Source of the DNA: Ostreococcus lucimarinus
Taxonomy: Eukaryota
DNA length: 64,000 nt
NCBI GenBank assembly: GCA_000092065.1
Contig: CP000584.1
Direction: 5' to 3' (one strand)
Made by a program: the position numbers and the translations under genes. The notes beneath the pieces were generated by a model, which saw only the letters and a program-made list of their open reading frames with translations, had not been told where the DNA came from and did no database searches. Positions 16,707 through 48,287 of this stretch are shown here, in pieces (the first letter of the stretch is position 1; each line of letters opens with the position of its first letter).

Positions 16707-16776
16707 CCGGGTGTTTTCGCGCGCGCACACCCGGGTGTTTTCGCGCGCGCACACCCGGGTGTTTCGCGCGCGCGCC
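16707..16776. repeat. 24-bp tandem repeat (2 perfect copies plus 1 diverged copy) in a divergent promoter
   Basis: ccgggtgttttcgcgcgcgcacac occurs at 16707..16730 and 16731..16754, followed by ccgggtgtttcgcgcgcgcg. Each unit junction forms CCCGGG. Confidence 0.9.
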
Positions 16777-16913
16777 GCCCGATCCGCCGTCGCGCGTCCC
16801 GCGTCGCGACTCGACGGCGCGCCGACGACGCGCGCGCTCGATCGCTCGACCGCTCGACCGCCGGACGACCGCCGCGCGAGGACGAGGACGCGCGACGGCG
16901 CGCGCGCGCGACG

Positions 16914-18875
16914 ATGGATGCGCCGCGGCGACCGTCCGGCGGCGGCGACGACGACGACGCGACGACGGCGCGCGCGACGACGACGACGGGCGCGAGCGAC
17001 GGAAGCGAAAAGTACGTCTCCGCGGCGACGCGGGCGCGACTGCGCGCGCGCGGGATCGACGCGTTGAACGCGATGCAGCTCGCGGTGTGCGAGGCGGCGG
17101 TCGGACGACGCGCGGACGCGACGTGTCGAGCGCCGACGGGGAGCGGGAAGACGCTGGCGTACGTGCTGCCGATCGCGAAGATGTTGGAGAGGGCGGCGCG
17201 CGACGGATCGGGGGGAGGCGGAGGCGGAGGCGCGGTGCGGGCGATGGTGGTGACGCCGACGCGGGAGCTGGCGAGTCAGGTGCGGACGCAGTGCGAGCGG
17301 TACTGCGGGGAGGGGTCGAGCGCGCTGTGCGTGGGAGGGACGAGCGCGAAGGCGCAGGAGGACGCGATTCGTAAGGGTGGGGCGAAGATTGTCGTCGGGA
17401 CGCCGGGGAGGATGAAGGAATTCATCGATCGGGGGGTGATCGAACCGCGCGCGGTGGAGATTCAGGTGTTGGACGAAATCGACCGCCTCCTCGACGGAGG
17501 GTTTGAGGGCGAGATCGACGCGGTGATGCGACCGCCCGGGACGTGTCAGACGCTTTGTTTTTCGGCGACGATCTCTGCGGCGTTGTCGAGATTTTTAGAT
17601 CGTAAACTCGTGCCCGGGTACGCGGAGGTGGTCGTCGCCGGACGAGGCGGCTCAAACGTGGGCGGGATGGTGGAGCACTTGGCGTACGCCACGAAGTCGG
17701 GAGACGACGCCGTCGGATCGGCGGTCGTGGACGCGTTAGAGCACTACGCGGGTGAGCACGTGGATGGGAGAGTCGGTGGTCAGGCGATCGTGTTCACGGA
17801 GACAAAGTCCACCGCGGAACGCGTCAGGGCGATGCTGACGAATATGTTGACGACGGTGCGTGCCTTTGAATTTTTCTCTTCTTTTTCGATCGAGTCGGTC
17901 GTCGATGACGAACAAACTATTAAGGGATTTATGAGATTGGAATCCGTTCCATGTTCGTACCAATAGACTACAATTCTCCGAGACGCCGACCTTCGAGACG
18001 CAGACGCAGACGAGCGCGTTTGTTCAATTTTTTCTCGTCCGAGTTCCAGAGGATTGCATGAATAATTCTTATCTACATTCCCTGAGATACCGGTGATTAC
18101 ACCTTTCAAGATGATGGAACTGCTTTGCGTTAGTTTTTTGACGCGCGCGCTCGCTCGCGTTCGATGGCGATGAAGATACACCTTATTTCACATGTTAGAC
18201 TGTCGAGATCGAGGGGTGAGGATCCTTCGATCGATGTGCACAACAATTCCGCCGAGCCATCGAATGCGGGCGAGGCAACCGATCTGACCCTCGTGCGCTC
18301 GCGATGACTGATTACCTTTTCCTTCTCGCGCGTAGGAATTCGACACTGGCAAACGAACTCGGCGAGTGGCGTCTTTACACGGCGACTTGCCGCAACCGGC
18401 GCGCGACGCGACGCTCGCGAACCTTCGCTCTGGCGAAGTCGACGTGCTCGTCGCTACAGACGTCGCCGCGCGTGGTCTCGATTTACCCGGAGTCGAGCTC
18501 GTCGTGCACGCAGACATGCCCAAATCTGCAGACACTTACTCGCACCGCGCCGGACGCGCCGGGCGTCCAGGGTGCGCCGTGCCCGGCGTTTCGTTGCTCA
18601 TCTCCCGACCCGAGCTCGCGTCTGAAATCACGCGCCTCGAGCGCGAAGCCAAGGTTTCGATTCGTCGTCTAGTGTTCATTGGCGAACGCGAACGCGTCGT
18701 CGTCACGGGTGACTTGGGCGCGAGCGTTTCCACGCTTGAGCCTGAAAGTCGCGAAAGCGCGCCCGCGAGACGGGACGACAGTCTCATCGCCGACCATTTC
18801 GCTCGCTTTGCGGATGACATTCAAAACATCGCGACGTCGAAGAAGAAAGGGAAATCGAAATCGCGCGGCAAATGA
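16914..18875 (+). CDS. DEAD-box (DEID variant) ATP-dependent RNA helicase, join(16914..17855,18336..18875), 493 aa
   Basis: Motifs in order: APTGSGKT, TPTRELA, GTPGR, LDEIDRLL and SAT in exon 1, then ATDVAARGLD and HRAGRAGR in exon 2. The track start 16674 is TTG; the first ATG is 16914. Confidence 0.85.
17856..18335 (+). other. Spliceosomal intron (helicase, 480 nt, AT-rich)
   Basis: GTGCGT donor, ACTGAT at 18307..18312, a pyrimidine tract and a TAG acceptor at 18333..18335, phase 0. The splice joins ..MLTNMLTT to EFDTGKRTRRVASLHGDL.., which completes the helicase core. Confidence 0.85.
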
Positions 18876-27526: not shown

Positions 27527-30019
27527 ATGTCCGCCGCGACGAAAGCCGCCGAGCGCGACGCCCTGGAGCGACTCCAGCGCGACGTGCGCAAGCACGCGCG
27601 CGACGAGAGCGTCGAGATCGATGCCGCGCGCGGCTGGCGCGTTACGTTTACCGAGCGCAAAACGGGCGCGCAAGCGGGGACATTTTACAAAGAGTTTTAC
27701 GCCCCCGACGGCACGCGGTTTCGAAGCGCCAAAGAAGTCTGCGCGCACGTCCAACAGATTCGAGGGATGAAGCGTAAAGCGCTGAAAGCGAGCGCGGGAT
27801 CGGGAAAGGAGAAAGGAAGCGGGAAGGGCGATGGAAAGGCGAAACGGGGGAGGCCGAGCGCGAGCGCGGAAACCGAGAACGAGGCGGACGCGCTGGAGAA
27901 ACTGTACGCGTACGTGAAGAACACGGCTGGTCGTGATATACGTCATCACGGTTGGGGCGTGGTGTTCGTGGAGCGGAAGTCGGGGGCGCTGGCTGGGCAG
28001 GTGTATAAAGACTACTTGACGCCGTGCGGGAACAAAGTACGGTCGATGAAGGAGGTGATGGTGTACTTGGCGGGGGTGAAGTCGCCGCAATCGAAAAAGA
28101 AGATTCGTCGTGACGATGGGAGCGTGGAGGAGGAGATGGAGGCGGAACCGACCGAGGCGGAGCTTCAAGCGTTGGAAATGAAGATTACAGAAGAGCACGC
28201 GGCGGCGATTACCAGAGCCGTGCCAGCGTTACCGGCGCGCACGCAATCCGTGCAAGTGACTGGCCTAGAATTAGACGATGATATGGATGAGGATCGGTTG
28301 CTTGTTGAATTTAGCAACATCACCGGACTCGAACCGGTGTATGAAACCTTGGAAGAGCTGCGGGAAATGGTGAATAAAGAGCGCGCTCGGGCGGCGGCGA
28401 AAAACGAGGCGATGGAGTTCAATTTCAAGCCGCCAACGACGCGCGCGCCGCGACCTTCTCTCGAAGCGCTGCCAAATGGGCTGAGCTACGCCGCGAAGGA
28501 AGTCGATGAGACGAAGAAGGCGGATCAGTTGGCGTTAATTCAACGCTTTCAGAAGGAAAGCAAAATCATGAATAAGCTTGGAGATGCTTCCAAAGCCGAT
28601 TGGAGAGGTGAAGCGCGCGTACCGAAAGTTTTGGGAGACACATCGGTTCCGGATGTTGTGCGTGGGGGTACGCGCGCCGGAGCGACGCCCATGATTGCGG
28701 GAACGGCGGCGGAAATCAAACTTTTACCGAGCACGACTGAGATTGATTACGACGGCGCTGAGGACAGGCCTCCGTTCGATCCCACTGATACGAGCTCGGT
28801 GACGACGCTCAAGGCAGCCATGCATACATCAACGGCGCCGGATGAAGTGCGGTGTCGCGAAGATGAGCGCGCGAAAGTGATCGATTTGATTCAAGGGTGC
28901 TTGCGTGATCACAAACCGGGCAGTCTGTATCTCGCCGGACTGCCAGGGACGGGGAAAACACTCACGCTCAAAGACGTTCAGAGAACAACGGAAAGATGGG
29001 GTATCGTAGGTAAGACTCGACCCCGTGTAGCTTTCATCAACTGCATGTCCGTGCACAACGCCAAAGATATTTTTGGAGTCGTTTTAGATCAACTTGGCGA
29101 AAGAGTTGCATCTGAAGACCGAGCGCCAAGCGTGGGATCCATAGAATACAGCAATATCCCAGAAGTCGTGGCGTTGAGAAGAGTAGTGACTTCGATGAAC
29201 GGTGGAATGTGCATCATTCTGCTCGATGAGATGGATCAACTCGAAACACGAGATCAAGAGGTTTTGTACGAGCTGTTTGCTTTGCCCGCACTCAAGGGAT
29301 CACGATGCGTTTTAGCGGGAGTCTCCAACGCGATCAATCTCACCGATCGCGTGCTGCCTAGATTGCGCGCTCGTGGATGCGAGCCTGCACTCGTAACGTT
29401 TTCTGCGTACGATGCCAAGCAGCTCAAGGTATTGCTGAAACAGCGCCTCGCGGCGCTTCCATTCAAGGCTTTCGAGGACTCTGCGTTGGAATTGTGTTCG
29501 CGGAAAGTAGGCGCGGCGACGGGCGACATGCGAAAGGCGCTCAACGTGTGCGCCACCGCCGTCGACATATGCGTGCAAGAAGCGACGAAGATCTCAGAGG
29601 ATGGTAGCGAAGCGCCCGCCTCGGCCAAGGGCACTGTGAAGATTTCCCACATGGCGCGCGCGCTTTCAAAAACGTACGCATCGCCAGTCGTGGACTCAAT
29701 CCGGGCATTGCCGCAAATGCAACAGATGGTCCTGTGTTCGGCGATAAAACTTTTGAGCAGTACGCACGCCATGGAGACGACGTTAGGGGCTTTGCATGAT
29801 CGATACGTCATCACTTGCAAGACAGCCGGTGTCAAGGATCTATCTCAAGGTGAGTTCCACAACATGTGCAGCGCGCTCTCGGATCATTGTTTGGTTAAGA
29901 TTGGGAATGCGAGTAACGATCGATTGCGCAAGCTACGATTGCTCGCCACGCGAGATGATGTGGAGTTTTCACTCCAAGGTGTGAACTTCTTCCGCAACTT
30001 ATTAGGGATCAACGAGTAG
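27527..30019 (+). CDS. ORC1/CDC6-family AAA+ replication initiator with two N-terminal MBD-like domains and an AT-hook (830 aa)
   Basis: Single uninterrupted ATG ORF. The C-terminal half has SLYLAGLPGTGKT (Walker A, about 28936..28959), ILLDEMDQL (Walker B), VSNAINLTDRVLPRL, GDMRKALNVC (sensor 2) and a winged-helix tail. Features of both CDC6 (DEMDQL) and ORC1 (KAFEDSALELCSRKV) are present. The N-terminal modules are listed as separate features. Confidence 0.85.
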   Translation: MSAATKAAERDALERLQRDVRKHARDESVEIDAARGWRVTFTERKTGAQAGTFYKEFYAPDGTRFRSAKEVCAHVQQIRGMKRKALKASAGSGKEKGSGKGDGKAKRGRPSASAETENEADALEKLYAYVKNTAGRDIRHHGWGVVFVERKSGALAGQVYKDYLTPCGNKVRSMKEVMVYLAGVKSPQSKKKIRRDDGSVEEEMEAEPTEAELQALEMKITEEHAAAITRAVPALPARTQSVQVTGLELDDDMDEDRLLVEFSNITGLEPVYETLEELREMVNKERARAAAKNEAMEFNFKPPTTRAPRPSLEALPNGLSYAAKEVDETKKADQLALIQRFQKESKIMNKLGDASKADWRGEARVPKVLGDTSVPDVVRGGTRAGATPMIAGTAAEIKLLPSTTEIDYDGAEDRPPFDPTDTSSVTTLKAAMHTSTAPDEVRCREDERAKVIDLIQGCLRDHKPGSLYLAGLPGTGKTLTLKDVQRTTERWGIVGKTRPRVAFINCMSVHNAKDIFGVVLDQLGERVASEDRAPSVGSIEYSNIPEVVALRRVVTSMNGGMCIILLDEMDQLETRDQEVLYELFALPALKGSRCVLAGVSNAINLTDRVLPRLRARGCEPALVTFSAYDAKQLKVLLKQRLAALPFKAFEDSALELCSRKVGAATGDMRKALNVCATAVDICVQEATKISEDGSEAPASAKGTVKISHMARALSKTYASPVVDSIRALPQMQQMVLCSAIKLLSSTHAMETTLGALHDRYVITCKTAGVKDLSQGEFHNMCSALSDHCLVKIGNASNDRLRKLRLLATRDDVEFSLQGVNFFRNLLGINE
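27551..27757 (+). other. MBD-like module 1 (residues about 9-77)
   Basis: GWRVTFTERKTGAQAGTFYKEFYAPDGTRFRSAKEVCAHV compared with MeCP2 [40 protein letters not shown]. Confidence 0.65.
27842..27856 (+). other. AT-hook core KRGRP
   Basis: GKAKRGRPSAS lies between the two MBD-like modules. Confidence 0.5.
27881..28075 (+). other. MBD-like module 2 (residues about 119-183)
   Basis: GWGVVFVERKSGALAGQVYKDYLTPCGNKVRSMKEVMVYL. It is preceded by EADALEKLYAYV, which parallels ERDALERLQRDV before module 1. Confidence 0.65.
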
Positions 30020-30097
30020 ACTCGTTGATTGTACATACAATTCGAGACGCGATTCGACGTCGTCAAACGAGGCGCACCACACAAAACGACACGCCAA

Positions 30098-30976
30098 ATG
30101 AAAGCTTCTCTCCTCCGACCATTGACATTGACCGCTCGACTTCGCGCTGTGCATCGCGTTAAGCCGCGTCTCAACACCGCTCGCTCGCTCGTCACTCGAG
30201 CCGACGCGACAGACCAATCAGGATCAGGCGCCTTCGTGCGAGGCCAAGCTCAGTTCTCGAAATTTTACCCAAGCGAAGCGCGCGATTTCACGTTCTCGAG
30301 ACACGTGATGCTCGCCGTCGACGGCACACATGCCTCTGAAGACGCCGCACGATGGGTCATTCAAAATGTCGTTCGCTCTGGAGATCTCCTGCACTTGATC
30401 CACGTCGCCGTTCCGGAATCGTTCGGTACGCTGCGTCGCGCGACGTTGTTCACTCGGAGAGACTGACCAAAACGACAAGGAGTTTACTACCTGGGCGCTC
30501 CCGGAACGGAGATCGCAGGAAGCGAGCTGGATTGGGAACGTAAAGACGAATTCTGGGCGAGTTGCATCCGCAGAACCGAACGCATGCTCGACGGCACCGT
30601 CACCCACATCATCGGCGAAGACGCCGACGCAGGGGAAGAGATGACGCCGTTTCGTCCGCCCATCGAACTCGATTGCATCTTGGATCAAACCTGGTACGCG
30701 TCACTTGATATACGTAACGCATATTTATCAACCTTCGACAGGGAGCCCGTTGGCGAGGTTTTACTCAACAAAGCGAAAGAGTCCAACGCCGAAATTCTCG
30801 TCGTCATCAAGCATCATAAGAGCTGGGTCCAAAAAATTTTCTCGGGATCGGTGAGCGAGTACCTGATCGACAAATCTGAGATCCCCATCCTCGTGTTTCC
30901 AGCCGCGATGCCCGCGTCTTCGGAAGACTTGATCTTAGGCGACGAAGACGATCAAAGTTCCAAAGGCGCGCGTTGA
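30098..30976 (+). CDS. Universal stress protein (USP / adenine-nucleotide alpha-hydrolase) family protein, join(30098..30425,30480..30693,30742..30976), 258 aa
   Basis: RHVMLAVDGTHASEDAARWVIQNVVRSGDLLHLIHV (USP N-terminal strand-helix) and AEILVVIKHHKSWVQKIFSGSVSEYLIDKSEIPILVF (USP C-terminal motif) lie in two track ORFs (30029..30466 and 30584..30976). Two mini-introns link them, and the total of 777 nt is divisible by 3. The N-terminus MKASLLRPLTLTARL is transit-peptide-like. Confidence 0.65.
30426..30479 (+). other. Mini-intron (USP intron 1, 54 nt)
   Basis: GTACGC donor, ACTGAC at 30462..30467, AAG acceptor ending at 30479. It removes the in-frame TGA at 30464..30466, and G|GA restores a Gly codon and the downstream frame. 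Confidence 0.55.
30694..30741 (+). other. Mini-intron (USP intron 2, 48 nt, frame-preserving)
   Basis: GTACGC donor, CGTAAC branch-like box at 30713..30718, CAG acceptor ending at 30741, all within an AT-rich stretch. Its length is a multiple of 3 with no stop, so retention would insert 16 aa. Confidence 0.45.
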
Positions 30977-31069
30977 TAACTTCATTTCATTACAAAGATC
31001 CGTCATGAGATGAGAAAATGACCGAAACGATGCGAAAGAATCAAGACGAAATGTTTGAGCGCGGTTCGA

Positions 31070-31074
31070 TTACA
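31070..31074 (-). terminator. Candidate TGTAA poly(A) signal for the ankyrin gene
   Basis: The plus strand reads ttaca, 9 nt after the minus-strand TAA stop (31083..31085). Confidence 0.3.
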
Positions 31075-31082
31075 CGCCGCGC

Positions 31083-31721
31083 TTAGTGGGCGAGGATTTC
31101 GCGCACGTACTTGTACGAGTTACTCCACACAGCCTTGCAAAGATCGATGGGCAAGCACTCTTGTTTGTTCTTGATGTTCTTGTCCGCACCATTTTGTAGC
31201 AAGAGATTGACGATTTCCACGTGTCCACGCATCGCCGCCCAGTGCAGCGCGGTGTTGTCGCCCATATCCAGCGCGTCCACGTCCGCGCCTTGCTCGAGCA
31301 TGAACTTCACCGTGTGATAGTGTCCGTTGTGCGCCGCGCGCTGCAACCCAGTATCTTTCATCAATCCGCTCTGTTGAATGTCAGCGCCTTCGTTGAGCAA
31401 CAGTTCGACAACCTTCGTGTGCCCGTTGCCCGCCGCGAGCACGAGCGGAGGATCCCCGCAGTGGTCGCACTCGTTAATCGGCGCGCCTTCGTGGATGTGC
31501 TCCTTCACCCAGTCGTAATAGCCATCGACGCAGTCGCGCCAAATATTGGATTTTTCCGGGATGAATCGTCCGGTCTGCGATGCGTTCGCGTTCGTTCGTC
31601 AGTCGTCGACTCGGGAATCGCGCACGAGGGGCCTCGGACGCGCGGACGCGATCCAGCGTCGTCGCCTTTGCGCGCCTTCGCCCGCGTCGCGAGTTTCACG
31701 CACCACGAGGTCGAACGGCAT
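31083..31721 (-). CDS. Small canonical ankyrin-repeat protein, complement(join(31083..31574,31704..31721)), 169 aa
   Basis: 33-residue ANK repeats (GDPPLVLAAGNGHTKVVELLLNEGADI.., DTGLQRAAHNGHYHTVKFMLEQGADV.., GDNTALHWAAMRGHVEIVNLLLQNGADK). The track ORF starts at GTG, and the frame stays open upstream to a CAG acceptor at 31575..31577. An 18-nt exon ATGCCGTTCGACCTCGTG followed by GTGCGT fits in phase 0. Confidence 0.6.
31575..31703 (-). other. Spliceosomal intron (ankyrin gene, 129 nt)
   Basis: On the minus strand: GTGCGT donor at 31703, ACTGAC at 31603..31598, CAG acceptor at 31577..31575. Confidence 0.55.
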
Positions 31722-31926
31722 CGTGTTTTCTCGGTTTCTGTCGCCGTGTCGGGCGCGCGTGTGTGCAGCGCGCGCGCGCGCGTTCGCCCGCCTCGAAATG
31801 CGCGAGCCACTTTCAGCCGTTTTTTTGCCGTTTTTTCACTCGAGCAAAACTCTCTCAGAAACGAGCGTTGTATTAAACCGAGGCAAACTAACGAGAAATG
31901 CGAAAGTACTAATCGAGAGCGCGATA

Positions 31927-32811
31927 TCACTTGGAGGGATCGATCAACTTCTTCGGCGGCCGAGCCGCCTTTTCGTCGACGCCGCTCGTGCCGAAGCGTC
32001 TACGCAAGACAGCCAAGACGTCGGACATCGGCACGCCTTGCTTGTTCAACATCACCATTGAGTGATAGAGCACGTCCGCCATTTCGTTCGTCGCCGCTTC
32101 CTTGCCTTCGTTTTCCTCCCACGTCTGGCACAACTCTCCCGCTTCTTCGCGAATCTTCTTACACAACAGCTCGGGGTTATCCAACAGCCTTCGAGTCCAC
32201 GAGGGCTTGACGTCGTCCGCCACAGCCTCCACCCTTCGCGCCTCAATCGTCGCCTCCAACTCATACAACGTCGTCAGCGCCTCCTCCGCCGCGTGTCGAC
32301 CCCCATCGACCTTCGCCGCCGCTCCATCCCTTCCATCGACCCGCTTATAGTAACACGTGTGCGCGCCCGTGTGACACGTCGGCCCCGTCGGGACGCCCAA
32401 ATAAATCAAACTATCCCGGTCGCAGTCCACGTGCACGGATTCAACGCCGATGAAATTACCGCTCGTCTCTCCCTTGCACCACAGTTCCGAGCGACTGCGG
32501 CTCCAGAACGTCGCCTTGCGATTCCGAAGCGTGTACGCCACCGCGTCCCGGCTCGCGAAGCCCTGCATCAAGATAGCGCCCGTGTCCACGTCCTGCGCGA
32601 TCGCGCACACCAGCCCTTTATCGTCGTACTTCAGCGAGTCCAGGAACGCGTTCAACTGCGTCTCGTCGACCGCGACGTCCGCGCCGAGCGCGATCGCGCG
32701 ACGAGCGTTCGCGCGCGCGACGACGCGCGCGCGCGTCGAGCCGCCGAACGCTGGTTGACGCGCGCGCGCGCCGCGCGGCATCGCCCGCGTCGGGGCGAGC
32801 GCGCGCGTCAT
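31927..32811 (-). CDS. hisIE: Bifunctional histidine biosynthesis protein HisIE (phosphoribosyl-AMP cyclohydrolase / phosphoribosyl-ATP pyrophosphatase) with a transit-peptide-like N-terminus
   Basis: GLVCAIAQDVDTGAILMQGFASRDAVAYTL..ATFWSRSRSELWCKGETSGNF..VHVDCDRDSLIYLGVPTGPTCHTG (HisI), then LYELEATIEARR...PSWTRRLL...KIREEAGEL...EMADVLYHSMVML (HisE). ATG at 32811, alternative at 32781. The 5' part of the track ORF is shadow sequence. Confidence 0.9.
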   Translation of the reverse strand: MTRALAPTRAMPRGARARQPAFGGSTRARVVARANARRAIALGADVAVDETQLNAFLDSLKYDDKGLVCAIAQDVDTGAILMQGFASRDAVAYTLRNRKATFWSRSRSELWCKGETSGNFIGVESVHVDCDRDSLIYLGVPTGPTCHTGAHTCYYKRVDGRDGAAAKVDGGRHAAEEALTTLYELEATIEARRVEAVADDVKPSWTRRLLDNPELLCKKIREEAGELCQTWEENEGKEAATNEMADVLYHSMVMLNKQGVPMSDVLAVLRRRFGTSGVDEKAARPPKKLIDPSK

Positions 32812-32941
32812 GATCGTGACCTCGCGCGCGCGCGCGTCCGAGCGACGAAGCGAGACGTCGAGCGCGCGCGACGCGACGCGCGTGCGTGCGTCGGGCTTTG
32901 TCGGGACGCGCCGCGACGTGACTTTACGACGCGCGCGCGCG

Positions 32942-33640
32942 ATGCTTCGCGCGGCGCTCCGCGCGCGCGCGGTGCGACTTCGCGCGCTCGATCGCGCGTC
33001 CATCGCCGATCGCGCGCGTCGCGAAGACGGTCGCGCGCGTCGGCAGCGCGCGCCGAGGCGTCGTCCGCGAGTCGTCGCTTTTTCGACCGGCGAGCGCGCG
33101 AGCGAGGAGAGCGTCGACGAGGCGCGCATGCGGCGCGCTTTGGCGCTCGCCCTCGACGCTGGGTCGCAGGGCGAAGTGCCGATCGCGGCCGTGCTCGTGG
33201 ACGCGACGACGGGGGAGGTGGTGGCGGAGGCGGCGAATCGCTGCGAGCGGGACGGCGACCCGACGGCGCACGCGGAGATGCTATTGATACGACTGGGCGC
33301 GGAAAAACTCGGAGGATGGCGACATTTGAAGCGCACGAGAATGTATGTGACGCTAGAGCCGTGCGCGATGTGTGCGGGGGCGATATTGCAGAGTAGAGTG
33401 GGAGGGGTGACGTACGGGGCGCGAAACGCGCTGCTCGGCGCGGATGGAAGCTGGGCGGCGCTGCTGCGAAACGAGGATGTGGGAGGAAGCGAGCGGGCGC
33501 CTGTGCGCGCGCATCCGTTCACGCCGGACTTGGACGTAAAGGGAGGCGTGCTCGCAGAGGAGACGGGGGAGGCGATGCGAGAATTTTTTAGGCGACGGCG
33601 AACGCTCGGCGCGTACGACGGCGAAACCGCGTCGAGCTGA
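32942..33640 (+). CDS. TADA: tRNA-specific adenosine deaminase (TadA/ADAT2-type CDA fold), probably organellar
   Basis: MRRALALALDAGSQGEVPIAAVLVD...PTAHAEMLLI...YVTLEPCAMCAGAI gives the H(A)E and PC..C zinc motifs. The start is uncertain: ATG 32942 (MLRAALRARAV) is preferred. ATG 32810 would overlap the HisIE start codon. Confidence 0.8.
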   Translation: MLRAALRARAVRLRALDRASIADRARREDGRARRQRAPRRRPRVVAFSTGERASEESVDEARMRRALALALDAGSQGEVPIAAVLVDATTGEVVAEAANRCERDGDPTAHAEMLLIRLGAEKLGGWRHLKRTRMYVTLEPCAMCAGAILQSRVGGVTYGARNALLGADGSWAALLRNEDVGGSERAPVRAHPFTPDLDVKGGVLAEETGEAMREFFRRRRTLGAYDGETASS

Positions 33641-33711
33641 CTTTGTTTGTGTATTGTTGTACACAAGTTTGTGTAGTGTATTGTATTGTAGCATTGCTCT
33701 AATCATATCAT

Positions 33712-36078
33712 CTATCGCGCGCCCGCGTACTCGTCGTCATCGTTGTCGTCGTCGTCGATATAATCGTCGTCGTCATCGTCGTCGTCGATGAATTTGTCGC
33801 GAATGCGCATCGAGCCGCCGCGCAAATCTGAAGACACTTCGTCGACGGGCTCTCGCGCGTCGTCGTCGTCGTCGTCGTCATCGTCGTCGTCGTCGTCGCC
33901 GTCCAAGTCTTCGTTCGCGAGAGGTAGGACATCATCAGAGAAGAGCTCATCTTCGTCATCATCGTAATCATCGGTGTCAGCGTCACTCACCAACCGAGCC
34001 TCCAAGCGCTTCGTGTACTCGATATTCGTGCCGGCGTCGTCTACGCCCGCTTCGAGCATGTCAATTTCGTACTGCGTGAGATCTCGCTTTCCCCCCGCGG
34101 TTGCCCTGTTGATCATCTCTTCGATCTCTTTCTTACTGAGTTTTTTATCTTCGTCGTCGTCTTTGAATCGCGGCACAACCTTGCGTCCGGCGTCGAGGCA
34201 CGCCTCCTCCCACGTTTCCCCGGCGTACACGTTGATGGGCGAGCCAAACGGATGCGGGTGGCGACCGAGCATCAGCAATAAGTCTTGCCTCGTGGGCATG
34301 ACTTCCAATGGGTACCTAAACCTCCACCATTTGCTTCGAGTATCGGTGACTTTGACTTCAAGCTCGGTGCCGACAGTGATGTGGTCGCGCATGGTCATCC
34401 AATCCGTCTCGTTGATTGGCAGCAACGCGTCGATTTCGGTGCCGCAGTCCACTAAAGCGCCGTGATATAAATCCATCGCGACGACCTTACCCTTCAACAC
34501 TTGATCAAGTTCAATCGTGTGGTGCATCTGTCGCGATACATCTCCAAAGTGTCTCGTGGGATCTCGGTCAACCGAGTCCACGTCCGTTTCTCGCGCTTCG
34601 GCCAAATGTCTCGTGTTCAGCGCGCGTTCGCGCATCCACGTGTTTTGTCCGCTCTCTATTTCTTCGTTTTGTACGCCGACGTAGGAAAGCGATGCGCCAT
34701 CGAACGCGCTCACGGCTTCATGCTGCGGCAGCGCGTCCCAGCCACCGTCACTCAACCATTCATCGTCGTCAAAGTCGTCCTCTGCGTCGTGACGCGATAC
34801 GAGTCGCCAATTTCCGTCGCCTTGCGCTCGTCTGGGATTGATTAAGAATGGAGCCTCTGGCGAGCCATCTTGATGAATTCGGTTGAGTTGAGATTCATCC
34901 AAGCCTTCATCTTCCTCATCTTTCTTGTCTTGGGCGGTCTCCATGCGTTCTTGCGCCTCTTCCTCTTCGAGCGCTTCGTCGAGGCGCTCCATCGCGAGCG
35001 TCAGCGGCTCCTCGTCCATATCCATCTCGCTCATTAAATCCCCTTCATCGTAGAAGATGTCTTCCTCGATGAAGTGCGTCGCGCTTCTTTCCGCGAAATC
35101 TTCCGCGACGAGCTCATCGATCTTGCTCTGTTTCCTCGCGCAATCGACTTCGTATCGCGCTTGCTCGGCGACGGTCATGTTGTTAAACTCTTCGCAACGC
35201 TCGTCGTACCACGCCACGATGTGTTCCTCGTCGACATCCGTGCGTTCGCTCAACTCGGCGATCTCTTTTCGCGTCGGTGGGTACGTTTGCATGTTTTTCA
35301 CTCGCAGCCACCAGTTAAGTTGACAGACATAAAGCGCCCGCCCCCGCAAAGCGCCCGCCTCGTCGGTGAAGTGTCGCGACGCCGACTTTGGCACCTCGCG
35401 CTTGATGTTTTCGTCACCCAATTCCTTCTTTTCGCGTGCGATGTGATCGATGACCCCGAAATCGTCGTCATCATCATCGTCGTCGTCGTAATCGTCGTAA
35501 TCGAGCAACAAATCGTCGTCGTCGTCGTCGTCAAACAACGACGCGACTTCGTCCGCGTCCCGGACGAACCCCGCCCCCGCGTCGTCGTCGTCGTACATCG
35601 ACCTCGCGAACCCTCCCGCGAGGACGTCCTCCTCCTCGTCCTCCTCCTCATCCTCATCCTCGTCATCGTCGTCCGCATCGCGCGCGTCCTCGTCTTCGTC
35701 GTAAAATCCCTCCGACCCGTCCTCCTCGTCCTCCGCGTCGTCGTCGTCGCCCGCGTCGTCGCCGCGCGTCGCCGCCGTCGTCACCTCCCGCGCCTCTCGC
35801 CCGCGCCTCGTCGTCCTCGCGCCGACGCGCATCGCGCGCGCGCGCATCACCGGCGTCTCCATCGTCGTCGCGCGCTCGCGCGCCATCGCGCCGCCGTCGT
35901 CGCGCGTCGCGCGCGCGTCCGCCGCCGCCGCCGCGAACCCGTCCCGTCGCGAATCCATCGCGTCGCGTCGCGTCGTCGCGCGTCGTCGTCGCGCCGGCGC
36001 GCGCCCAGACGCCGCGCGGGCATCGCGCCGCGCCGTCGCGACGCGCGCGGGCGCGCGCGCCGTCGCGCGCGCGCGCAT
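33712..36078 (-). CDS. S1 RNA-binding-domain protein with long Asp/Glu tracts and a transit-peptide-like N-terminus (pTAC10-like?)
   Basis: S1 fold sequence: LKGKVVAMDLYHGALVDCGTEIDALLPINETDWMTMRDHITVGTELEVKVTD. The track start is GTG; the first ATG is 36078 (MRARATARAP). The pTAC10 comparison is from memory only. Confidence 0.6.
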   Translation of the reverse strand: MRARATARAPARVATARRDARAASGRAPARRRRATTRRDAMDSRRDGFAAAAADARATRDDGGAMARERATTMETPVMRARAMRVGARTTRRGREAREVTTAATRGDDAGDDDDAEDEEDGSEGFYDEDEDARDADDDDEDEDEEEDEEEDVLAGGFARSMYDDDDAGAGFVRDADEVASLFDDDDDDDLLLDYDDYDDDDDDDDDFGVIDHIAREKKELGDENIKREVPKSASRHFTDEAGALRGRALYVCQLNWWLRVKNMQTYPPTRKEIAELSERTDVDEEHIVAWYDERCEEFNNMTVAEQARYEVDCARKQSKIDELVAEDFAERSATHFIEEDIFYDEGDLMSEMDMDEEPLTLAMERLDEALEEEEAQERMETAQDKKDEEDEGLDESQLNRIHQDGSPEAPFLINPRRAQGDGNWRLVSRHDAEDDFDDDEWLSDGGWDALPQHEAVSAFDGASLSYVGVQNEEIESGQNTWMRERALNTRHLAEARETDVDSVDRDPTRHFGDVSRQMHHTIELDQVLKGKVVAMDLYHGALVDCGTEIDALLPINETDWMTMRDHITVGTELEVKVTDTRSKWWRFRYPLEVMPTRQDLLLMLGRHPHPFGSPINVYAGETWEEACLDAGRKVVPRFKDDDEDKKLSKKEIEEMINRATAGGKRDLTQYEIDMLEAGVDDAGTNIEYTKRLEARLVSDADTDDYDDDEDELFSDDVLPLANEDLDGDDDDDDDDDDDDDAREPVDEVSSDLRGGSMRIRDKFIDDDDDDDDYIDDDDNDDDEYAGAR
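33859..33897 (-). repeat. (GTC)n / (GAC)n trinucleotide run encoding 13 consecutive Asp
   Basis: Thirteen triplets (12 GTC plus 1 ATC on the plus strand). Similar runs lie at 33740..33790 and 35461..35535. Confidence 0.9.
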
Positions 36079-36260
36079 GCCGACGCGTCGCGGTGTGACG
36101 CCGCCGCGGTTAGGGTTCGGCGTCCACACGTTTATCGCGACGGGTCGTTATTTTTACATCGTCCAAACGTGCGCTCGAATGCGGCGCGAGACGCCGACCG
36201 GGGAATGGCGATCGGCGCGGATTCGCGCGCGCCGCACACGCGCGCGCGTCCGAGATCGAC

Positions 36261-37109
36261 ATGCGCGCGACGCCGATCGCGAGAATCATCGCGCCCGCGC
36301 GCTCGCGATCGAGCGCGACGCGCGCGAGCGGTCGAGGACGGCGCGGAACGACGCGAATCGTCGCGAAGGCGTCGAATTCGAGTCGCGGGATCGATCCGGG
36401 CGTCGTCGCGCCCACGCTCGAGCACCGAGGCGACGAGTGCGAGGTCGCGGATGATGTATTGCGCGTCGTCGTGTCGAACGACGACGCGAGCGCGCGCGCG
36501 AGGGGGCGGAGCGCGATCAAGCTGCGGGTGAAGTCGATCCCGGGGCTGCTGCGAAGCGTCGCGTGGGTGCTGCACGGATTGGATCTCGCGGCGCACGAGT
36601 GCGCGATCGCGACGGACGCGAACGGGGTCGTGGAGATGGCGTTTGAGTGCACCGAGCGCGCGGGGTCGAGCGGGACGCGAGAGCAGCAGATCGTGGATTG
36701 CGACTTGACGCGGGACAGGCTGTACGATTACCTGGCGCGGTGCGCGGACGGAGGGGCGGAGACGAACGAGGAGCGATTGGAGGAGGACGGGGTCGTCGTG
36801 GATAACACGAGAAACGAGGATTCGACGTACGTGAGCGTGCGAGTGGACGAGGCGGTGTCGAGCGCGATCTCGCTGTATCCGATCGGGAACACGTTCACGG
36901 GGAGCGGGTTGGTGGTTAAAAACGGGACGCTCAACAAGGGCGTGGACGCGTCCACGGGACGGGCCACGAAGACGTGGGAATTCGACGTCGTCAGGCAAGC
37001 GGATCGTAAGAAGTTAAATACCGATCAGTTGCAGCCGCTCATGTACACGCTCGCGCTCGTGTGCGCGCCGGGAAGCTTTGGACGATCGCACGCGTTTACG
37101 TCGCGGTGA
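36261..37109 (+). CDS. ACT-domain repeat protein (ACR11/12-like), transit-peptide-like N-terminus
   Basis: Two ACT-like beta-alpha-beta-beta-alpha-beta segments (IKLRVKSIPGLLRSVAWVLHGLDLAAHECAIATDANGVVEMAFECTE and YVSVRVDEAVSSAISLYPIGNTF..). The size and layout resemble small plastid ACR proteins. The family call is tentative. Confidence 0.45.
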   Translation: MRATPIARIIAPARSRSSATRASGRGRRGTTRIVAKASNSSRGIDPGVVAPTLEHRGDECEVADDVLRVVVSNDDASARARGRSAIKLRVKSIPGLLRSVAWVLHGLDLAAHECAIATDANGVVEMAFECTERAGSSGTREQQIVDCDLTRDRLYDYLARCADGGAETNEERLEEDGVVVDNTRNEDSTYVSVRVDEAVSSAISLYPIGNTFTGSGLVVKNGTLNKGVDASTGRATKTWEFDVVRQADRKKLNTDQLQPLMYTLALVCAPGSFGRSHAFTSR

Positions 37110-37177
37110 AGAAATTTTCGAGCGAGCGCCGTGAATATTAATATGACTGCTATGTATCGTCGCATCCGTCGCGTCCC

Positions 37178-38399
37178 TCACATCGAGTTCAGCGCCGCGC
37201 CTAAAGGCCACGCCGCCTCCACGGGCTTGCCTTGGTATTCGATCTGCTTGACGAGCGTGAAATCCCGCCATCCGTGTCTGCCGAAGCCGACGTTGAGCAA
37301 GGCGTAGGCAAACGTGAGGTCCATGCAAAGAAACGGGGCGTCCTTCGGCTCGACGCCGTGATACTTGGTCGTGACTTCCGCTACGCTGACACCGCACGCC
37401 TTCTCCGCGGCCGCCTTAAAGTCGTTCACGGCGGCGCGTCCATCGATTTCGTCGTCGGTGACGATGCCGACGTTCACCGCGCGATCCCACAAATAACTCG
37501 ACATGTACACGCGCTTGCTTCCCGCCCCCGGTTCGCCGCCCCACGCACCGTCAAAGGAGCACTGCTTCGGTCGTTCGCACTCTTTGTCCACGCCGAGCGC
37601 GGCCACGGCGACGTCGTAACACGACGCGTGATCGCTCCCAGAATCGCGCGCCGACGCTTTGTACGTTTTCCCGGCGTATTCGTACACGCCGTCGTATCCC
37701 GCGTGCACGCACGGTGATCCACCTCGCTCTTCCGCTTGCGCCAAAACCGCCGCGCGCGCGGCCATCAAACCGTGCCCGAGGTGCGAACGCGTGTACACGT
37801 CGAACGAGTGCCCGAGAGCTTTCAGTTTTGTAATGTACCCATCCGGCGCGTTCGCGACGCTCTCCGGAGGCACTTGGTACGCCAATTGCACCGATCCACC
37901 GCCTAAATCCACGGCCGCCACCGTCTGCACGTCGCCGTCGTGATCGGCACCTCCGTTCGCGAGATTGCCGAGCAAGTAATTCATCGTCAACCACTGATAC
38001 GCGCCCTCGTCCGCGCCGTCCATGATGGAGACGCTCTCGTCGTCAAACTTGAACGGATACTCCTTGAGCAACTTTTTACACTCCGCGAGAATATCGCTCG
38101 ACGCGTCCCCCGGAAGCAAACGCAAGCCCGCGGTCGCGCGCAACTCCACGCTCGTCTCCGCGCGATCCGCCGCCGGCACGGCGTTCATCGCCGTCGTCAT
38201 CAACGTTCGCAAGCTCTCCGCCGCCGCCTTCGGATCGCTCGCGCGCGCGCTCAGCCCCGGCTTCACCGCCTCGAAGTGATCGTCCAACAGCTTCAACCCT
38301 CGCCCCGCGCGCTCGAACGCGAACACGTGCGCGCGACTCCCCGTGCTCCCCGCGTCGAGCACCACCGCGTACCGCCGCGTCGCCTCCGCCGCGTCCTCC

Positions 38400-38431
<32 letters not shown>

Positions 38432-38722
38432 CCCCTTCCTCTCGCGCAGCACCCTATCGTAATCCACCGCGCGCGCCCTCGCGCGCCCGAGCCCCTCGTC
38501 CCCGTCTCTCGCCATCGCCAGCGCGCTCGCCGCGCCCGCGTCGCCGCCGAACCGTCTCGCGCCCCGTCCCTCTCGCCCCCCCCTTCCCCGCGTCGACCCA
38601 TTCGCGTTCTCCCCGAACGCGCTCAGCGCCAGCAGCACCGTCACCGGCACCGCCACCAGCGCCAACGACGCTCGACCGCGACTCGCGCGCGCGTCCCGTC
38701 CCGTCCCCCGTCGCGTCGCCAT
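37178..38722 (-). CDS. GDA1/CD39-family nucleoside phosphatase (apyrase / NTPDase) with an N-terminal signal anchor
   Basis: Apyrase conserved regions in order: YAVVLDAGSTGSRAHVF, LRATAGLRLL, DGADEGAYQWLTMNYLLG, VAAVDLGGGSVQLAY. Confidence 0.9.
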
Positions 38723-38922
38723 CGCGTCGCGATGACTCTATGAGCCCGATCGATCGTCCGTCGCGTCGCGAACGGCGAACGGCCCCGTCGACGCGCGCGC
38801 GCCCGATCGACCGCGACCGCGCGCGCGTCGTCCTCGCGCGTCGCGCGCCGCGTCGCGCGCGCGGCGTCGCGCGGTGCCGATCGATCGTCGATCGCGCGCG
38901 CGCCGCGACGCGCGGACGCGGC

Positions 38923-38942
38923 GACCGACCGACCGACCGACC
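38923..38942. repeat. (GACC)5 = (ACCG)n microsatellite in the apyrase/coiled-coil divergent spacer
   Basis: Direct reading: gaccgaccgaccgaccgacc. Confidence 0.8.
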
Positions 38943-39169
38943 GGGCGTCCGAGTATCGCACTGTTTACCCACACGAACGCGAATATCGAAAAAATCGCCA
39001 TCGATCCTTAAATACATGGACTTACACGCACACACAATGCGCGTCGACTCGCGATCGCGCGGCATAAAAACACCGCGCGCGCGCGACCGATCGACCGACC
39101 GACGCGACGACGATTCGATCGGATCGAATGCATCGAATGCGTCGGCGCTGTGCGACGCGCGCGTCGACG

Positions 39170-40757
39170 ATGGAGACGGAGATGGAGCAACCGCTGGCGA
39201 ACCTGGCGCGCGCGCAGGACGAGCTGCGGAACGCGCTGAGCGCGAACCTCGGGGAGCTGCGGAGCGCGCACGACGGCGTCGCGGCGGCGGCGGCGAACGC
39301 GCTCAGGGAGCGCCGGCGCGAGCGCGAGGAGAGTCGAACGGCGCTCGAGCGAGAGGCGAGCGAGCGCGCGCGGTTGGAGACGAAGCTGACGCAGTGCGAG
39401 ACGGCGCTGCGGGAGACGAAGGCGGCGCTGGGAGAGGCGCGGAGCGAGGCGAAGGAGGTGCGCGAGAACGACGGCGAGGCGAGGCGAGACGCGATTCGAA
39501 CGCGGACGAGACGCCGACGAGTCTGGAGAAGCGGCGAGGGACGGGGGGGGGGGTAGGATGTGGGATTTCATGGTTTGGGACGGTTTGGGACGGTTCGGGA
39601 CGGGGCGCGGAGGAAGGCGCGCGCGCGGAGGAAGGCGAGGGGGGGGGCGACGCGATCGCGGCGCGAGGGAGAGAAGGAGCGACTGACGAACGACGCGGCG
39701 CGCGACGAATCGATAGGCGAACCAACAATCCGCGCAAGAAATCCGAGATTTGACGCAAAAGCTTCAGTTGACGCTCGAAGAGAAGAAGAAGAACGAAGAC
39801 GCGCTGAAACAACACGGGCAAGAGCTCAAGCAGCAGCTGATCATCATGCAAACCAAGCTCGAACGGGCGGGGGAGATGGACAAGGTGAAGGAGGAGCAGT
39901 TCGCGCAACAAGAAAACCGGCATAAAGATACGGTTGAGGAGTTCAAGAAGGCTCAAACCGAGCTCAAGCTGCAGCTCCAGGACGCGCTGGCGAAGATTGA
40001 AGCCGAGCACAAGGGGATGAAGGTGCAAGAAGCCGAGGTGCTGAAGCAACGCGACGTCATCAACCGTCTCGAGGCGAAGAATGCGAGCTTGATCGCCGAG
40101 CTCGACAACACGCGCGCGCAGTGCGTGCAATGGCAACGCGAGACCGACATGGCGAAGGCTGAGATGCAACAAGCGCGAAGCGAAGCTGAAGCCGCCAAGG
40201 AGGAGCGCATGAAGGAGGAAAAGCATCGAGGCATCGCCGAGAACGAAACCGCGGACTCGCGCCGAAAGGCGGCCGAGGCCACGGCGCTCGCCGCGGACGA
40301 GAAGCAAACCAGAAAGCTCGCCGACCAAGCGTTGGAAGCTAAGCAGAACGAATTAAAGGATCTCAAGCACAAGGCGCAAATGATGGAGAAGGATTACAAG
40401 GAAATGCTCACCGATGAAAAGCAGGCTCGGGCGCAACTGGAAGAAAACTACGAGACCTTGAAGCAAGATTCGGTGAACTTGTACAACGCGTACACGAGCT
40501 CGAACCAGCAAATCGAAGAGTACCGCATCGCGCTCGAGCGCGAAGCGCAAGAAGCGGCTGCTCTGCACGCCGCGCTCGCCAAGCAAAAGGAGGACGCCGC
40601 TCGAGACGCCGTGCGCTCTCGAAGCACGCGCGTCATCGCCCCTCCCGCTGGCTTCTTGGGCGGTTCATCTCCGTCTCCTAAGCAAGACGGACGCCGCGGT
40701 GGCGCCCGCATCGGCGAAATGGACGATATCCGATCGCCGCCATCCTTCGCAGACTAG
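39170..40757 (+). CDS. Coiled-coil protein, join(39170..39457,39717..40757), 442 aa
   Basis: Track ORFs 39128..39556 and 39750..40757 are both heptad-rich (E/K/Q/A/L) and join in phase 0. ATG 39170 has the best context (A at -3, G at +4); 39128 is an alternative. No family recognised. Confidence 0.6.
39458..39716 (+). other. Spliceosomal intron (coiled-coil gene, 259 nt)
   Basis: GTGCGC donor, ACTGAC at 39682..39687, TAG acceptor at 39714..39716. It contains G-runs and a ggtttgggacggtttgggacggttcgggacgg repeat. Confidence 0.65.
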
Positions 40758-48276: not shown

Positions 48277-48287
48277 CTTAACTTGTC

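Follow-up and report, generated by a model that had tools for sequence, protein, structure and literature searches.

The window analysed here, a 64,000-nucleotide stretch of DNA, encodes a CDC6 protein that carries two methyl-CpG-binding domain (MBD) modules at its N-terminus. By sequence comparison the 830-aa protein is CDC6 from an Ostreococcus-type picoalga, one of the Mamiellophyceae, and that this orthologue bears two genuine MBD-fold modules seems to us very nearly certain. What is supported here is the architecture: which domains are present and how they are predicted to fold, orthology to CDC6, a fusion conserved across green lineages, and the keeping of both arginine fingers. On the wider statement, which joins to the two MBDs a tethering of CDC6 to methylated DNA, we find ourselves evenly poised between acceptance and doubt.

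The gene and its identity as CDC6

The coding sequence and the elements of its ATPase and winged-helix unit are as follows.

27527..30019, plus strand: complete single-exon CDS of the MBD-MBD-CDC6 protein (830 aa plus stop, ATG start; ORF listing)
28847..29362, plus strand: AAA+ ATPase core, aa 441-612 (Pfam AAA_22, AAA_16 and AAA; alignment to human CDC6 8s0e_G, 171 bits)
28937-28960, plus strand: Walker A, GLPGTGKT, aa 471-478 (motif in the translation)
29216-29242, plus strand: Walker B, ILLDEMDQL, aa 564-572 (motif in the translation)
29324-29365, plus strand: sensor-1 region, SNAINLTDRVLPRL, aa 600-613 (motif in the translation; includes SNAINLTDR)
29408..29590, plus strand: Cdc6/ORC-type lid domain, aa 628-688 (Pfam lid matches below cut-off; aligned throughout to human CDC6)
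29522-29551, plus strand: sensor 2, GDMRKALNVC, aa 666-675 (within the lid domain)
29693..29968, plus strand: C-terminal CDC6 winged-helix domain, aa 723-814 (Pfam Cdc6_C)

An earlier note on this DNA had described an uninterrupted 830-aa ORF encoding an AAA+/winged-helix unit; the ORF listing and Pfam confirm this, no stop codon falls within the 830 codons, and every motif that the note quoted is located in the translation. The profile scan that it proposed places MBD, AAA and Cdc6_C above their cut-offs: Cdc6_C (PF09079) scores 74.1 bits (E 8.9e-21; cut-off 25.1), and among the AAA families AAA_22 scores 48 bits and AAA_16 47 bits; the lid families fall below the Pfam cut-offs (Cdc6-ORC-like_ATPase_lid, E 6e-5; AAA_lid_10, E 2e-4). 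The elements required of an AAA+ protein are all present: Walker A GxxGxGKT, Walker B hhhhDE, sensor 1, and sensor 2 GDxRxAL. As an AAA+ ATPase, CDC6 associates with DNA-bound ORC and works with CDT1 to load the MCM2-7 helicase; the 830-aa protein is predicted to act in the same way, with ATP-dependent binding to ORC and loading of MCM2-7. An identical or near-identical copy of it occurs on marine metagenome contigs.

Judged from its orthologues, the start codon is well placed, because conservation starts with the residue next to the Met, five loci have in-frame stops 24-207 nt ahead of the start, and the neighbouring gene upstream has a conserved C-terminus (...VYIL-stop).

Two other accounts of the locus bear on these assignments. 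The gene model might be an artefact, either because the MBD and CDC6 parts belong to separate genes or transcripts or because the gene extends into the MCM3-WH-like ORF upstream; that ORF is in the same frame as 27527..30019, a GT..AG pair would permit a 105-nt in-frame intron (27422..27526) joining it to CDC6, and one O. tauri model (OUS49306.1) fuses the two in a single annotation. Yet the 830 codons are open from end to end and collinear over their full length in about 10 orthologues; the upstream protein ends in VYIL or VYII plus a stop, conserved in three species; the gaps between the ORFs range from 90 to 370 nt, and the frames differ at other loci; the two genes are separate in the reference annotation of O. 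tauri; and at a Micromonas-like locus the MCM3-WH-like neighbour is missing beside MBD-CDC6. Fusion with the upstream ORF is ruled out by the conserved stop, the varying gaps and frames, and this neighbour-free locus, and an artefact of either kind is very improbable. (A PDB sequence search with the upstream protein gave no match.) The other account would make the protein ORC1, or an undifferentiated ORC1/CDC6 of archaeal style, in which the MBDs replace the BAH reader of ORC1; ORC1 and CDC6 are after all paralogous, and the match to human ORC1 is strong. CDC6 nevertheless outscores ORC1 in three of the three species compared (human, 171 vs 149 bits; fly, 136 vs 127; yeast, 80 vs 58), and the nearest named relatives are all CDC6. 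In an NJ tree ORC1 and CDC6 separate with 100% bootstrap, and the protein falls with CDC6, inside the Viridiplantae CDC6 clade (100% support), where it nests among plant CDC6s in species-tree order; neither BAH nor PHD gives a Pfam match in the protein at E up to 10, and its relatives likewise gave no match to either. The PDB scores, the named relatives and the tree rule out ORC1 identity, to which we leave next to no probability. Of the earlier label, 'ORC1/CDC6-family', the family stands, but the phylogeny and pairwise scores narrow it to CDC6.

The N-terminal modules and their linker

27551..27760, plus strand: module 1, aa 9-78, N-terminal helix plus MBD core (Pfam MBD aa 25-74; R44, R66; Y55/E57)
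27761..27880, plus strand: linker, aa 79-118, disordered, basic, Gly/Lys-rich (AF2 pLDDT <50 for residues 85-116)
27842-27856, plus strand: KRGRP, AT-hook-like, aa 106-110 (motif position; inside the linker)
27881..28078, plus strand: module 2, aa 119-184, N-terminal helix plus MBD core (Pfam MBD aa 141-182; R150, R172; Y161/D163)

Each of the two MBD-like modules put forward in the earlier note exceeds the Pfam gathering score on its own: PF01429 matches residues 1-88 alone at 32.2 bits (E 8.5e-8) and residues 112-200 alone at 35.7 bits (E 6.5e-9), with a cut-off of 21. The modules also match one another (BLASTP E 7e-17, 37% identity). AlphaFold2 (AF2), applied to residues 1-200 in line with the modelling the note suggested, predicts two helix + beta-hairpin + helix modules of the MBD/TAM type with pLDDT ~75-87 and a disordered linker between them (module 1: H3-24, E38-43, E53-58, H68-88; module 2: H119-134, E144-149, E159-164, H174-183). 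When this model was compared with the PDB by Foldseek, the best 38 matches were all MBD or TAM domains (probability 0.94-1.00; core rmsd 0.8-2.3 A over 40-43 residues), those of SETDB2 and BAZ2A/B (TAM) among them. In the predicted structure, then, the beta-sheet and C-terminal helix of the MBD fold are present in both modules; by sequence, their closest solved relatives are AtMBD6 and AtMBD5. A profile of the 70-aa helix+MBD module, used as a homology query against a coarse word index, returned two short fragments and nothing more.

Where an AT-hook was claimed between the modules, the AT-hook-like KRGRP is present, but the claim does not extend to conservation: in the alignment, RGRP is absent from the linker position of the other Ostreococcus-type orthologues. 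Chara CDC6 carries two RGRP hooks downstream of its MBD.

Residues that would contact methyl-CpG

In canonical MBDs an Asp orients the first Arg finger and a Tyr contributes to methyl recognition; in MBD3 this Tyr is lost (Y-to-F) and methyl selectivity is weakened. Both fingers, the equivalents of MeCP2 R111 and R133, are retained in the two modules as R44/R66 and R150/R172, as had been proposed, and the caveat then attached to the Asp121/Tyr123 pair was right: the Asp-x-Tyr of MeCP2 is absent from both modules, which read Y55-K-E57 and Y161-K-D163 in its place, and the stretch from finger to finger is free of indels. The Glu four residues past the second Arg is kept in both modules, together with the RK.G and RS motifs of the fingers.

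Relatives vary at these positions. The Tyr/acidic swap is found in most Ostreococcus-type orthologues as well; the full R/D/Y/R of canonical MBDs survives in Chara CDC6, in the distal Micromonas-like module (that nearest the ATPase) and in module 1 of O. tauri; several Micromonas-like modules are entirely without RK.G and RS. At the four contact positions the MBDs of bryophyte CDC6 read K/D/I/K, R/D/V/K, K/D/A/S and K/D/S/R; the Tyr is gone from them, and often an Arg finger too, so a canonical pocket for reading methyl groups is not needed for the fusion to persist. With the Arg fingers kept but the Asp and Tyr swapped, and with a canonical D-x-Y in some relatives, 5mC specificity of the two modules is plausible and should be put no more firmly.

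The middle region

28283..28411, plus strand: acidic helix-loop-helix, aa 253-295, MDEDRL.VEF..ITG.EP...LR.M (alignments; AF2 pLDDT ~85)
28451..28477, plus strand: D-box-like RPSLEALPN, aa 309-317 (regex scan; conservation in alignments)
28598..28729, plus strand: near-invariant stretch, DWRGEARVPKVLGDTSVPDVVRGGTRAGATPMIAGTAAEIKLLP, aa 358-401 (alignment columns; predicted disordered, pLDDT <50)

Between the modules and the ATPase, AF2 gives the middle region a mean pLDDT of 62, and the sole confident element is the acidic helix-loop-helix, which is conserved and common to the Micromonas-like CDC6. RPSLEALPN, in which R..L..LPN is invariant across the Ostreococcus-type family, is a putative APC/C degron by its fit to the RxxLxxxxN consensus. 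The near-invariant stretch, whose RVP+.LGN core is likewise common to the Micromonas-like protein, is probably a docking region of the linear-motif kind; no Pfam domain was found in the middle region, this stretch included. In the first 440 residues S/T-P occurs only three times, and a full CDK consensus nowhere.

Distribution of the fusion

About 10 two-module orthologues show 59-67% overall identity with both modules conserved, a pattern that points to selective constraint on each, as does the retention of the RK.G and RS finger motifs and of the Glu past the second Arg. MBD-CDC6 fusions are found in Mamiellophyceae, Chara, liverworts and mosses: in a Micromonas-like alga, a version of which is present in Tara sequence records, the modules are expanded to about six, and Pfam places MBD beside CDC6 in the CDC6 of Chara, Marchantia, Riccia, Physcomitrium and Sphagnum. 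Entries with a single MBD include the following.

Chara braunii: GBG82036.1
Marchantia: Mp2g13780 / MARPO_0042s0007
Physcomitrium patens: CDC6B isoform X2

In moss a single ORF encodes the fusion, on contigs of mRNA size (~2.65 kb) that occur in 78 run assemblies. Among the vascular-plant, animal and fungal CDC6 and ORC1 proteins examined, the MBD fusion is absent. The fusion is old and real, and its distribution suggests an ancestral feature of the green lineage, later lost, as its absence from the sampled vascular plants would imply.

It is not unique to this alga, and some members are known as automatically labelled database entries. The earlier note knew of no described initiator with MBDs, and would have given way to evidence that the architecture was catalogued and common. 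A full-text literature search found no published description of the fusion, so the part of the claim that concerns publication stands; CDC6 goes unmentioned in the paper on the O. tauri diel transcriptome. As a claim of singularity it yields in part to the recurrence in Chara and bryophyte entries and to the O. tauri orthologue, already named 'Methyl-CpG DNA binding' in NCBI/UniProt.

Comparison with known proteins

Canonical CDC6 (human, 8s0e/8rwv; plant CDC6A/B) resembles the window protein in an AAA+ core, lid and winged helix collinear over residues 433-826, in orthology by phylogeny, and in a regulatory region with a D-box-like motif upstream of the ATPase. In animals, fungi and vascular plants, however, CDC6 begins with a regulatory tail that is disordered and has many CDK sites, whereas the N-terminus here holds two MBDs predicted to be folded. 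The proteins of Chara, Marchantia, Riccia, Physcomitrium and Sphagnum fall in the same Viridiplantae clade and share the order of an N-terminal MBD, a low-complexity region and the CDC6 AAA+/WH unit, with AT-hooks after the MBD in Chara; they differ in that their MBD is single, lacks the helix extension at its N-terminus and has the canonical ..DFDW hairpin at the C-terminal side, and in the bryophyte members the Tyr and an Arg finger are gone. The modules of the window protein number two, and their Y..E/D is swapped.

MeCP2, MBD1-4 and Arabidopsis MBD5-6-7 have the same fold, both Arg fingers and the Glu that stabilises the second Arg, and MeCP2 also has a basic/AT-hook segment after its MBD. 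Here, unlike in those proteins, Tyr-x-Glu/Asp stands for Asp-x-Tyr, a helix is added at the N-terminus, the C-terminal hairpin motif is missing, and the attached part is an ATPase, not a repressor-recruiting region.

ORC1 with BAH or BAH-PHD is alike in concept, as a chromatin-mark reader on the N-terminus of an AAA+ initiator of the ORC1/CDC6 family: the metazoan BAH reads H4K20me2, and plant ORC1 is BAH-PHD. But ORC1 is the other paralogue, its reader has a BAH/PHD fold where this one is an MBD, and the mark is on histones, not on DNA. As the window protein is CDC6 by tree and scores, the comparison with ORC1's BAH drawn in the earlier note holds as analogy and fails as replacement.

What the modules may do

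On one reading of the architecture, the paired MBDs, with the basic linker that joins them, would give CDC6 a bivalent tether to DNA. Such a tether would concentrate CDC6 on CG-rich, probably CG-methylated, nucleosome-linker DNA; in a genome that is very compact, assembly of ORC-CDC6 and loading of MCM would then favour linkers that are both accessible and methylated, and methylation reading would in this way be coupled to licensing. DNA binding, methyl preference and the licensing effect are the parts of this model that we infer. A passage of PMC5082852 that summarises Huff & Zilberman 2014 describes dense, DNMT5-dependent CG methylation in the nucleosome linkers of Mamiellales; CG methylation in the source organism is assumed from these relatives. 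Periodicity of CG dinucleotides in the window, taken as an indirect sign of linker methylation, shows a weak bump near 160 nt that is equal in the GC control and so carries no information on methylation.

A different perspective supposes that the MBDs are degenerate: the fold is kept, 5mC is not read, and the modules bind DNA nonspecifically or in unmethylated form, or interact with protein or RNA, giving CDC6 a general affinity for chromatin or a docking site for partners that has nothing to do with methylation. MBD3, the MBD of SETDB1/2 and the TAM domain of BAZ2A are precedents, and SETDB2 and the BAZ2A/B TAM domains are among the Foldseek matches. The replacement of Asp/Tyr by Y..E/D in both modules and in most Ostreococcus-type orthologues, the contact residues lost in bryophytes, and the Micromonas-like modules devoid of RK.G and RS would all fit. 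On the other hand, both Arg fingers and the stabilising Glu persist in both modules; the acidic and aromatic residues have changed places but still share one face of the strand; the full canonical set occurs in Chara, in the distal Micromonas-like module and in O. tauri module 1; and heavy CG methylation is what the cited passage (PMC5082852) reports for these algae. We consider degeneracy a serious contender, though rather unlikely.

The methyl-reading tether has a bolder extension, in which MBD-CDC6 serves as a sensor of replication state. If the MBDs bound only symmetrically methylated CG, CDC6, and hence MCM loading, would go to unreplicated, fully methylated DNA, and hemimethylated new DNA would be excluded until DNMT5 restored its methylation. 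This would be a methylation-based eukaryotic block to re-licensing that dates from the ancestor of green plants and has since disappeared from the vascular ones. At E. coli oriC, SeqA binds hemimethylated GATC and blocks initiation; the SeqA/Dam system is thus a functional analogy, an origin-associated protein that reads DNA methylation and controls re-initiation. SeqA is an unrelated protein, and the analogy serves solely as a basis for the sensor proposal, which is speculative and improbable.

Implications

How licensing factors choose their sites in eukaryotes without sequence-specific origins is a long-standing question, and the known answers are readers of histone marks on ORC1 (BAH, PHD) and accessory proteins. 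An MBD-bearing CDC6 would, if the tethering model is true, provide a direct physical link from 5mC to helicase loading, in organisms where CG methylation marks nucleosome linkers and not gene silencing. If the MBDs do not read methylation, they would still tether CDC6 to DNA or chromatin in a lineage-specific way, which would be new but of narrower interest. Carriers of the fusion include the tractable species O. tauri, in which homologous recombination is possible, Marchantia and Physcomitrium, so the idea that methylation guides licensing is directly testable. The pattern across the green lineage bears on the evolution of replication-chromatin coupling in plants.

A CDC6 protein with two N-terminal MBD modules

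The gene is a single open reading frame with an ATG start and no interruption in the ORF listing of the window; its features, those of its surroundings and the motifs in its translation are as follows.

27527..30019 (+), MBD-MBD-CDC6 protein, 830 aa
28598..28729 (+), conserved stretch within it, aa 358-401
26411..27436 (+), upstream ORF, 341 aa
27437..27526, gap between the two ORFs, 90 nt, 44% G+C

Motifs in the window CDC6 translation
aa 106-110: KRGRP (AT-hook core RGRP)
aa 471-478: Walker A, GLPGTGKT
aa 564-572: Walker B, ILLDEMDQL
aa 600-613: SNAINLTDRVLPRL
aa 666-675: sensor 2, GDMRKALNVC

All motifs quoted in the earlier note are thus present where expected, and Pfam recognises the AAA+ and winged-helix unit in the C-terminal part (AAA_22, 48.4 bits; AAA_16, 47.3 bits; Cdc6_C, 74.1 bits against a cut-off of 25.1). 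That note had placed the protein in the ORC1/CDC6 family without choosing between the two; the family stands, and pairwise scores and a tree now give the membership. When the C-terminal 400 residues are compared with solved structures, CDC6 outscores ORC1 in all three species (human, 171 versus 149 bits; Drosophila, 136 versus 127; yeast, 80 versus 58). The named relatives in the profile search, from liverworts to Arabidopsis, are all CDC6. A neighbour-joining tree of the AAA+-winged-helix region (25 sequences, 395 columns, 100 bootstraps), which took in labelled ORC1s (shrimp, octopus, mite, nematode and yeast) and labelled CDC6s, separates ORC1 from CDC6 with 100% bootstrap support and places the window protein inside a Viridiplantae CDC6 clade, also at 100%; within the clade the order of branching (Mamiellophyceae, Chara, land plants) matches that of the species. 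Pfam detects no BAH or PHD domain in the window protein or the relatives examined. ORC1 identity is ruled out on these grounds, and by sequence comparison the protein is a CDC6 orthologue whose ATPase motifs are intact.

The MBD family PF01429 matches the protein twice. Scanned separately, each N-terminal segment exceeds the gathering score of 21 (residues 1-88, 32.2 bits, E 8.5e-8; residues 112-200, 35.7 bits, E 6.5e-9). The modules (aa 9-78 and 119-184) match one another in BLASTP (E 7e-17, 37% identity) and are therefore true products of an internal duplication. For residues 1-200, AlphaFold2 supplied with eight aligned orthologues models two modules of similar build (pLDDT ~75-87), each with a long N-terminal helix, a beta-hairpin, a short strand and a C-terminal helix, joined by a putatively disordered linker (residues 85-116). 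In a Foldseek search of the PDB with this model, the top 38 matches are all MBD or TAM domains, among them MBD2, MBD3, MBD4, MeCP2, MBD1, AtMBD5/6, SETDB2 and BAZ2A (probabilities 0.94-1.00; cores superposing at 0.8-2.3 A over 40-43 residues). The combination of two MBDs with an initiator is confirmed, far beyond chance.

Gene model and neighbourhood

The upstream ORF is in the same frame as CDC6, by coincidence; there is an in-frame GT(27422)..AG(27526) pair, and the two genes are joined in one annotation of O. tauri, OUS49306.1 (1129 aa). Such a fusion is rejected because three species share the upstream C-terminus (...VYIL or ...VYII) together with the stop codon after it; gap length varies (90, 155, 173 and 370 nt), with different frames in other loci; CDC6 conservation starts directly after the Met; in-frame stops lie 24-207 nt 5' of the CDC6 start in five loci; annotation of the O. 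tauri reference assembly keeps two separate genes; and the Micromonas-like locus has an MBD-CDC6 without the neighbour.

The upstream product is very acidic, with no relative in the PDB; its C-terminus scores 26 bits, just below the cut-off of 27, against the MCM3-like winged-helix family PF23191. In O. tauri and one other Ostreococcus-type locus, too, it adjoins the 5' side of CDC6 and shares its strand, and it may be a replication-related neighbour. A TTCAAA(A/T)TT-like element ~40-60 nt 5' of the CDC6 start (AAATTCAAAAATTCGAA in the window gap 27437..27526, TTTTCAAATTTCAAAC in O. tauri) may be a shared promoter element; among the equivalent gaps compared (loci L008 and L006), a similar sequence, GATTCAAATTTGCGCG, lies further upstream in L006. 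When 24615..31508 of the window is compared with L005 (the Micromonas-like metagenome contig), L006, L007 and L008, Ostreococcus-type and Micromonas-like loci agree in having CDC6 followed by a universal-stress-protein gene and then an ankyrin-repeat gene on the minus strand; a class I fumarate hydratase is encoded upstream in Ostreococcus and downstream in the Micromonas-like contig.

Distribution and origin of the fusion

Marine metagenome contigs encode a protein reported as 100% identical to the window protein, with residue 5 differing (P for T). The nearest named relative, at 61% identity, is O. tauri XP_003078641.1 / Q01BC5, named ‘Methyl-CpG DNA binding’ by NCBI and UniProt. About 10 Ostreococcus-type orthologues (59-67% identity) share the two-module layout, and a further clade has a one-module version. 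An exhaustive search of 1.84 billion representatives gave 3931 relatives, among which matches outside the Ostreococcus family are confined to the CDC6 part. MBD modules are found in two Micromonas-like clusters: P0019 (2055 aa), in which the reader array has expanded strikingly to ~six helix+MBD modules, and P0045 (1097 aa), whose gene model is truncated and which is present among Tara records. In the Micromonas-like gene (L005 1482..7649) most modules are degenerate, lacking RK.G or RS motifs; only the ATPase-proximal one is canonical, with a ~15-residue insertion.

The Pfam pair PF01429 and PF09079 also occurs in Chara braunii (GBG82036.1), Marchantia polymorpha and M. paleacea CDC6 (Mp2g13780), Riccia fluitans, Physcomitrium patens CDC6B isoform X2 and Sphagnum. 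It was not seen in Selaginella, Diphasiastrum, Cryptomeria, Amborella, angiosperm CDC6 models or Parachlorella, and a broadened MBD HMM found no MBD in the remaining CDC6/ORC1 representatives compared (animals, fungi, protists). In 78 independent run assemblies a single ORF encodes the moss fusion on contigs of mRNA size (~2.65 kb), which argues that it is transcribed as one message. Marchantia polymorpha Mp2g13780 has two annotated products (P0195 / P0196), one of 702 aa with the MBD and one of 496 aa with a different short N-terminus and no MBD; alternative start or splicing could toggle its presence.

Parsimony favours one ancient fusion in the green lineage, followed by loss in vascular plants. 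Independent fusions in different green lineages may instead have occurred, and are kept as an alternative because the algal modules differ from the streptophyte ones in having an extra N-terminal helix and no C-terminal DFDW hairpin. The window protein adds a further member to this conserved family of the green lineage.

Contact residues and methyl-CpG recognition

All CDC6-linked MBDs were aligned with MeCP2, MBD1 and AtMBD5/6.

Residues at the positions of MeCP2 R111 / D121 / Y123 / R133
Window module 1: R / Y / E / R
Window module 2: R / Y / D / R
Most Ostreococcus-type orthologues: R / Y / E / R
O. tauri module 1: R / D / Y / R (canonical)
O. tauri module 2: R / W / E / R
Micromonas-like module nearest the ATPase: R / D / Y / R (canonical)
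Chara: R / D / Y / R (canonical)
Marchantia: K / D / I / K
Riccia: R / D / V / K
Physcomitrium: K / D / A / S
Sphagnum: K / D / S / R

Both Arg fingers are intact in both window modules, as first read, and the Glu four residues past the second (MeCP2 E137) is retained. The caution voiced then over the Asp121/Tyr123 pair was warranted: it is noncanonical here and canonical in close relatives. As the spacing of the Arg fingers, 22 residues, equals that of MBD1, this is a true acidic/aromatic exchange on one strand face and not an alignment shift. Judged from these residues, methyl-CpG specificity is plausible for the O. lucimarinus modules; its likelihood is higher in O. tauri, in the Micromonas-like alga and in Chara, and the bryophytes are unlikely to have it. 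The main rival, in which the MBDs bind DNA or a partner with no preference for methylation, is rather less likely than not.

Linker and middle region

The linker is rich in Lys and Gly. The putative AT-hook noted between the modules has its RGRP core in O. lucimarinus alone among the Ostreococcus-type orthologues, and therefore counts for little. In Chara CDC6, two clear AT-hooks follow the MBD. Between module 2 and the ATPase, S/T-P dipeptides number just three and a full CDK consensus is absent; a D-box-like RPSLEALPN has its R..L..LPN positions invariant in the Ostreococcus-type family, and an acidic helix-loop-helix (aa 253-295) is confidently predicted by AlphaFold2. The stretch at aa 358-401, DWRGE.RVPK.LG.TS...RGGTRAGA.P.IAGT..EIKLLP (family consensus DWRGEGRVPKFLGNTS..RGGTRAGAAP.IAGT.AEIKLLP), is almost invariant yet predicted disordered; Pfam recognises no family in it, its RVP+.LGN core recurs in Micromonas-like CDC6, and it looks like a lineage-specific docking motif.

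Possible role and significance

CpG depletion is usual in CG-methylated genomes; across the window (1..64000) CpG observed/expected is 1.67, a strong excess. A weak autocorrelation bump near 160 nt for CG over the whole window is uninformative on linker methylation, since GC shows an equal one.

A passage of PMC5082852, citing Huff & Zilberman 2014, describes the nucleosome linkers of Mamiellales as extensively methylated at CpG and attributes this to DNMT5. Two MBDs and a basic linker could form a bivalent DNA tether; the tether would enrich CDC6 on CG-methylated linker DNA, and ORC-CDC6-dependent MCM loading would then be biased to accessible, methylated sites. Control of re-licensing by a methylation-state sensor, able to tell unreplicated DNA (fully methylated) from replicated DNA (hemimethylated), is quite improbable. 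The overall interpretation of the earlier note, an MBD-carrying initiator that links methylation reading to licensing, is partly supported. Its remark that no such initiator is known to have been described agrees with a full-text search of non-subscription literature, in which no paper mentioning the fusion was found; automatic annotation, however, already catalogues the architecture (‘Methyl-CpG DNA binding’, ‘MBD domain-containing protein’), and the RefSeq entries for moss and liverwort bear the name CDC6.

The arrangement is analogous to, and distinct from, the BAH domain of ORC1: here it is CDC6 that carries a DNA-mark reader. The MBD-CDC6 family matters to specialists in replication and epigenetics, because the fusion is conserved, was not expected for CDC6 and can be tested in species that are tractable.
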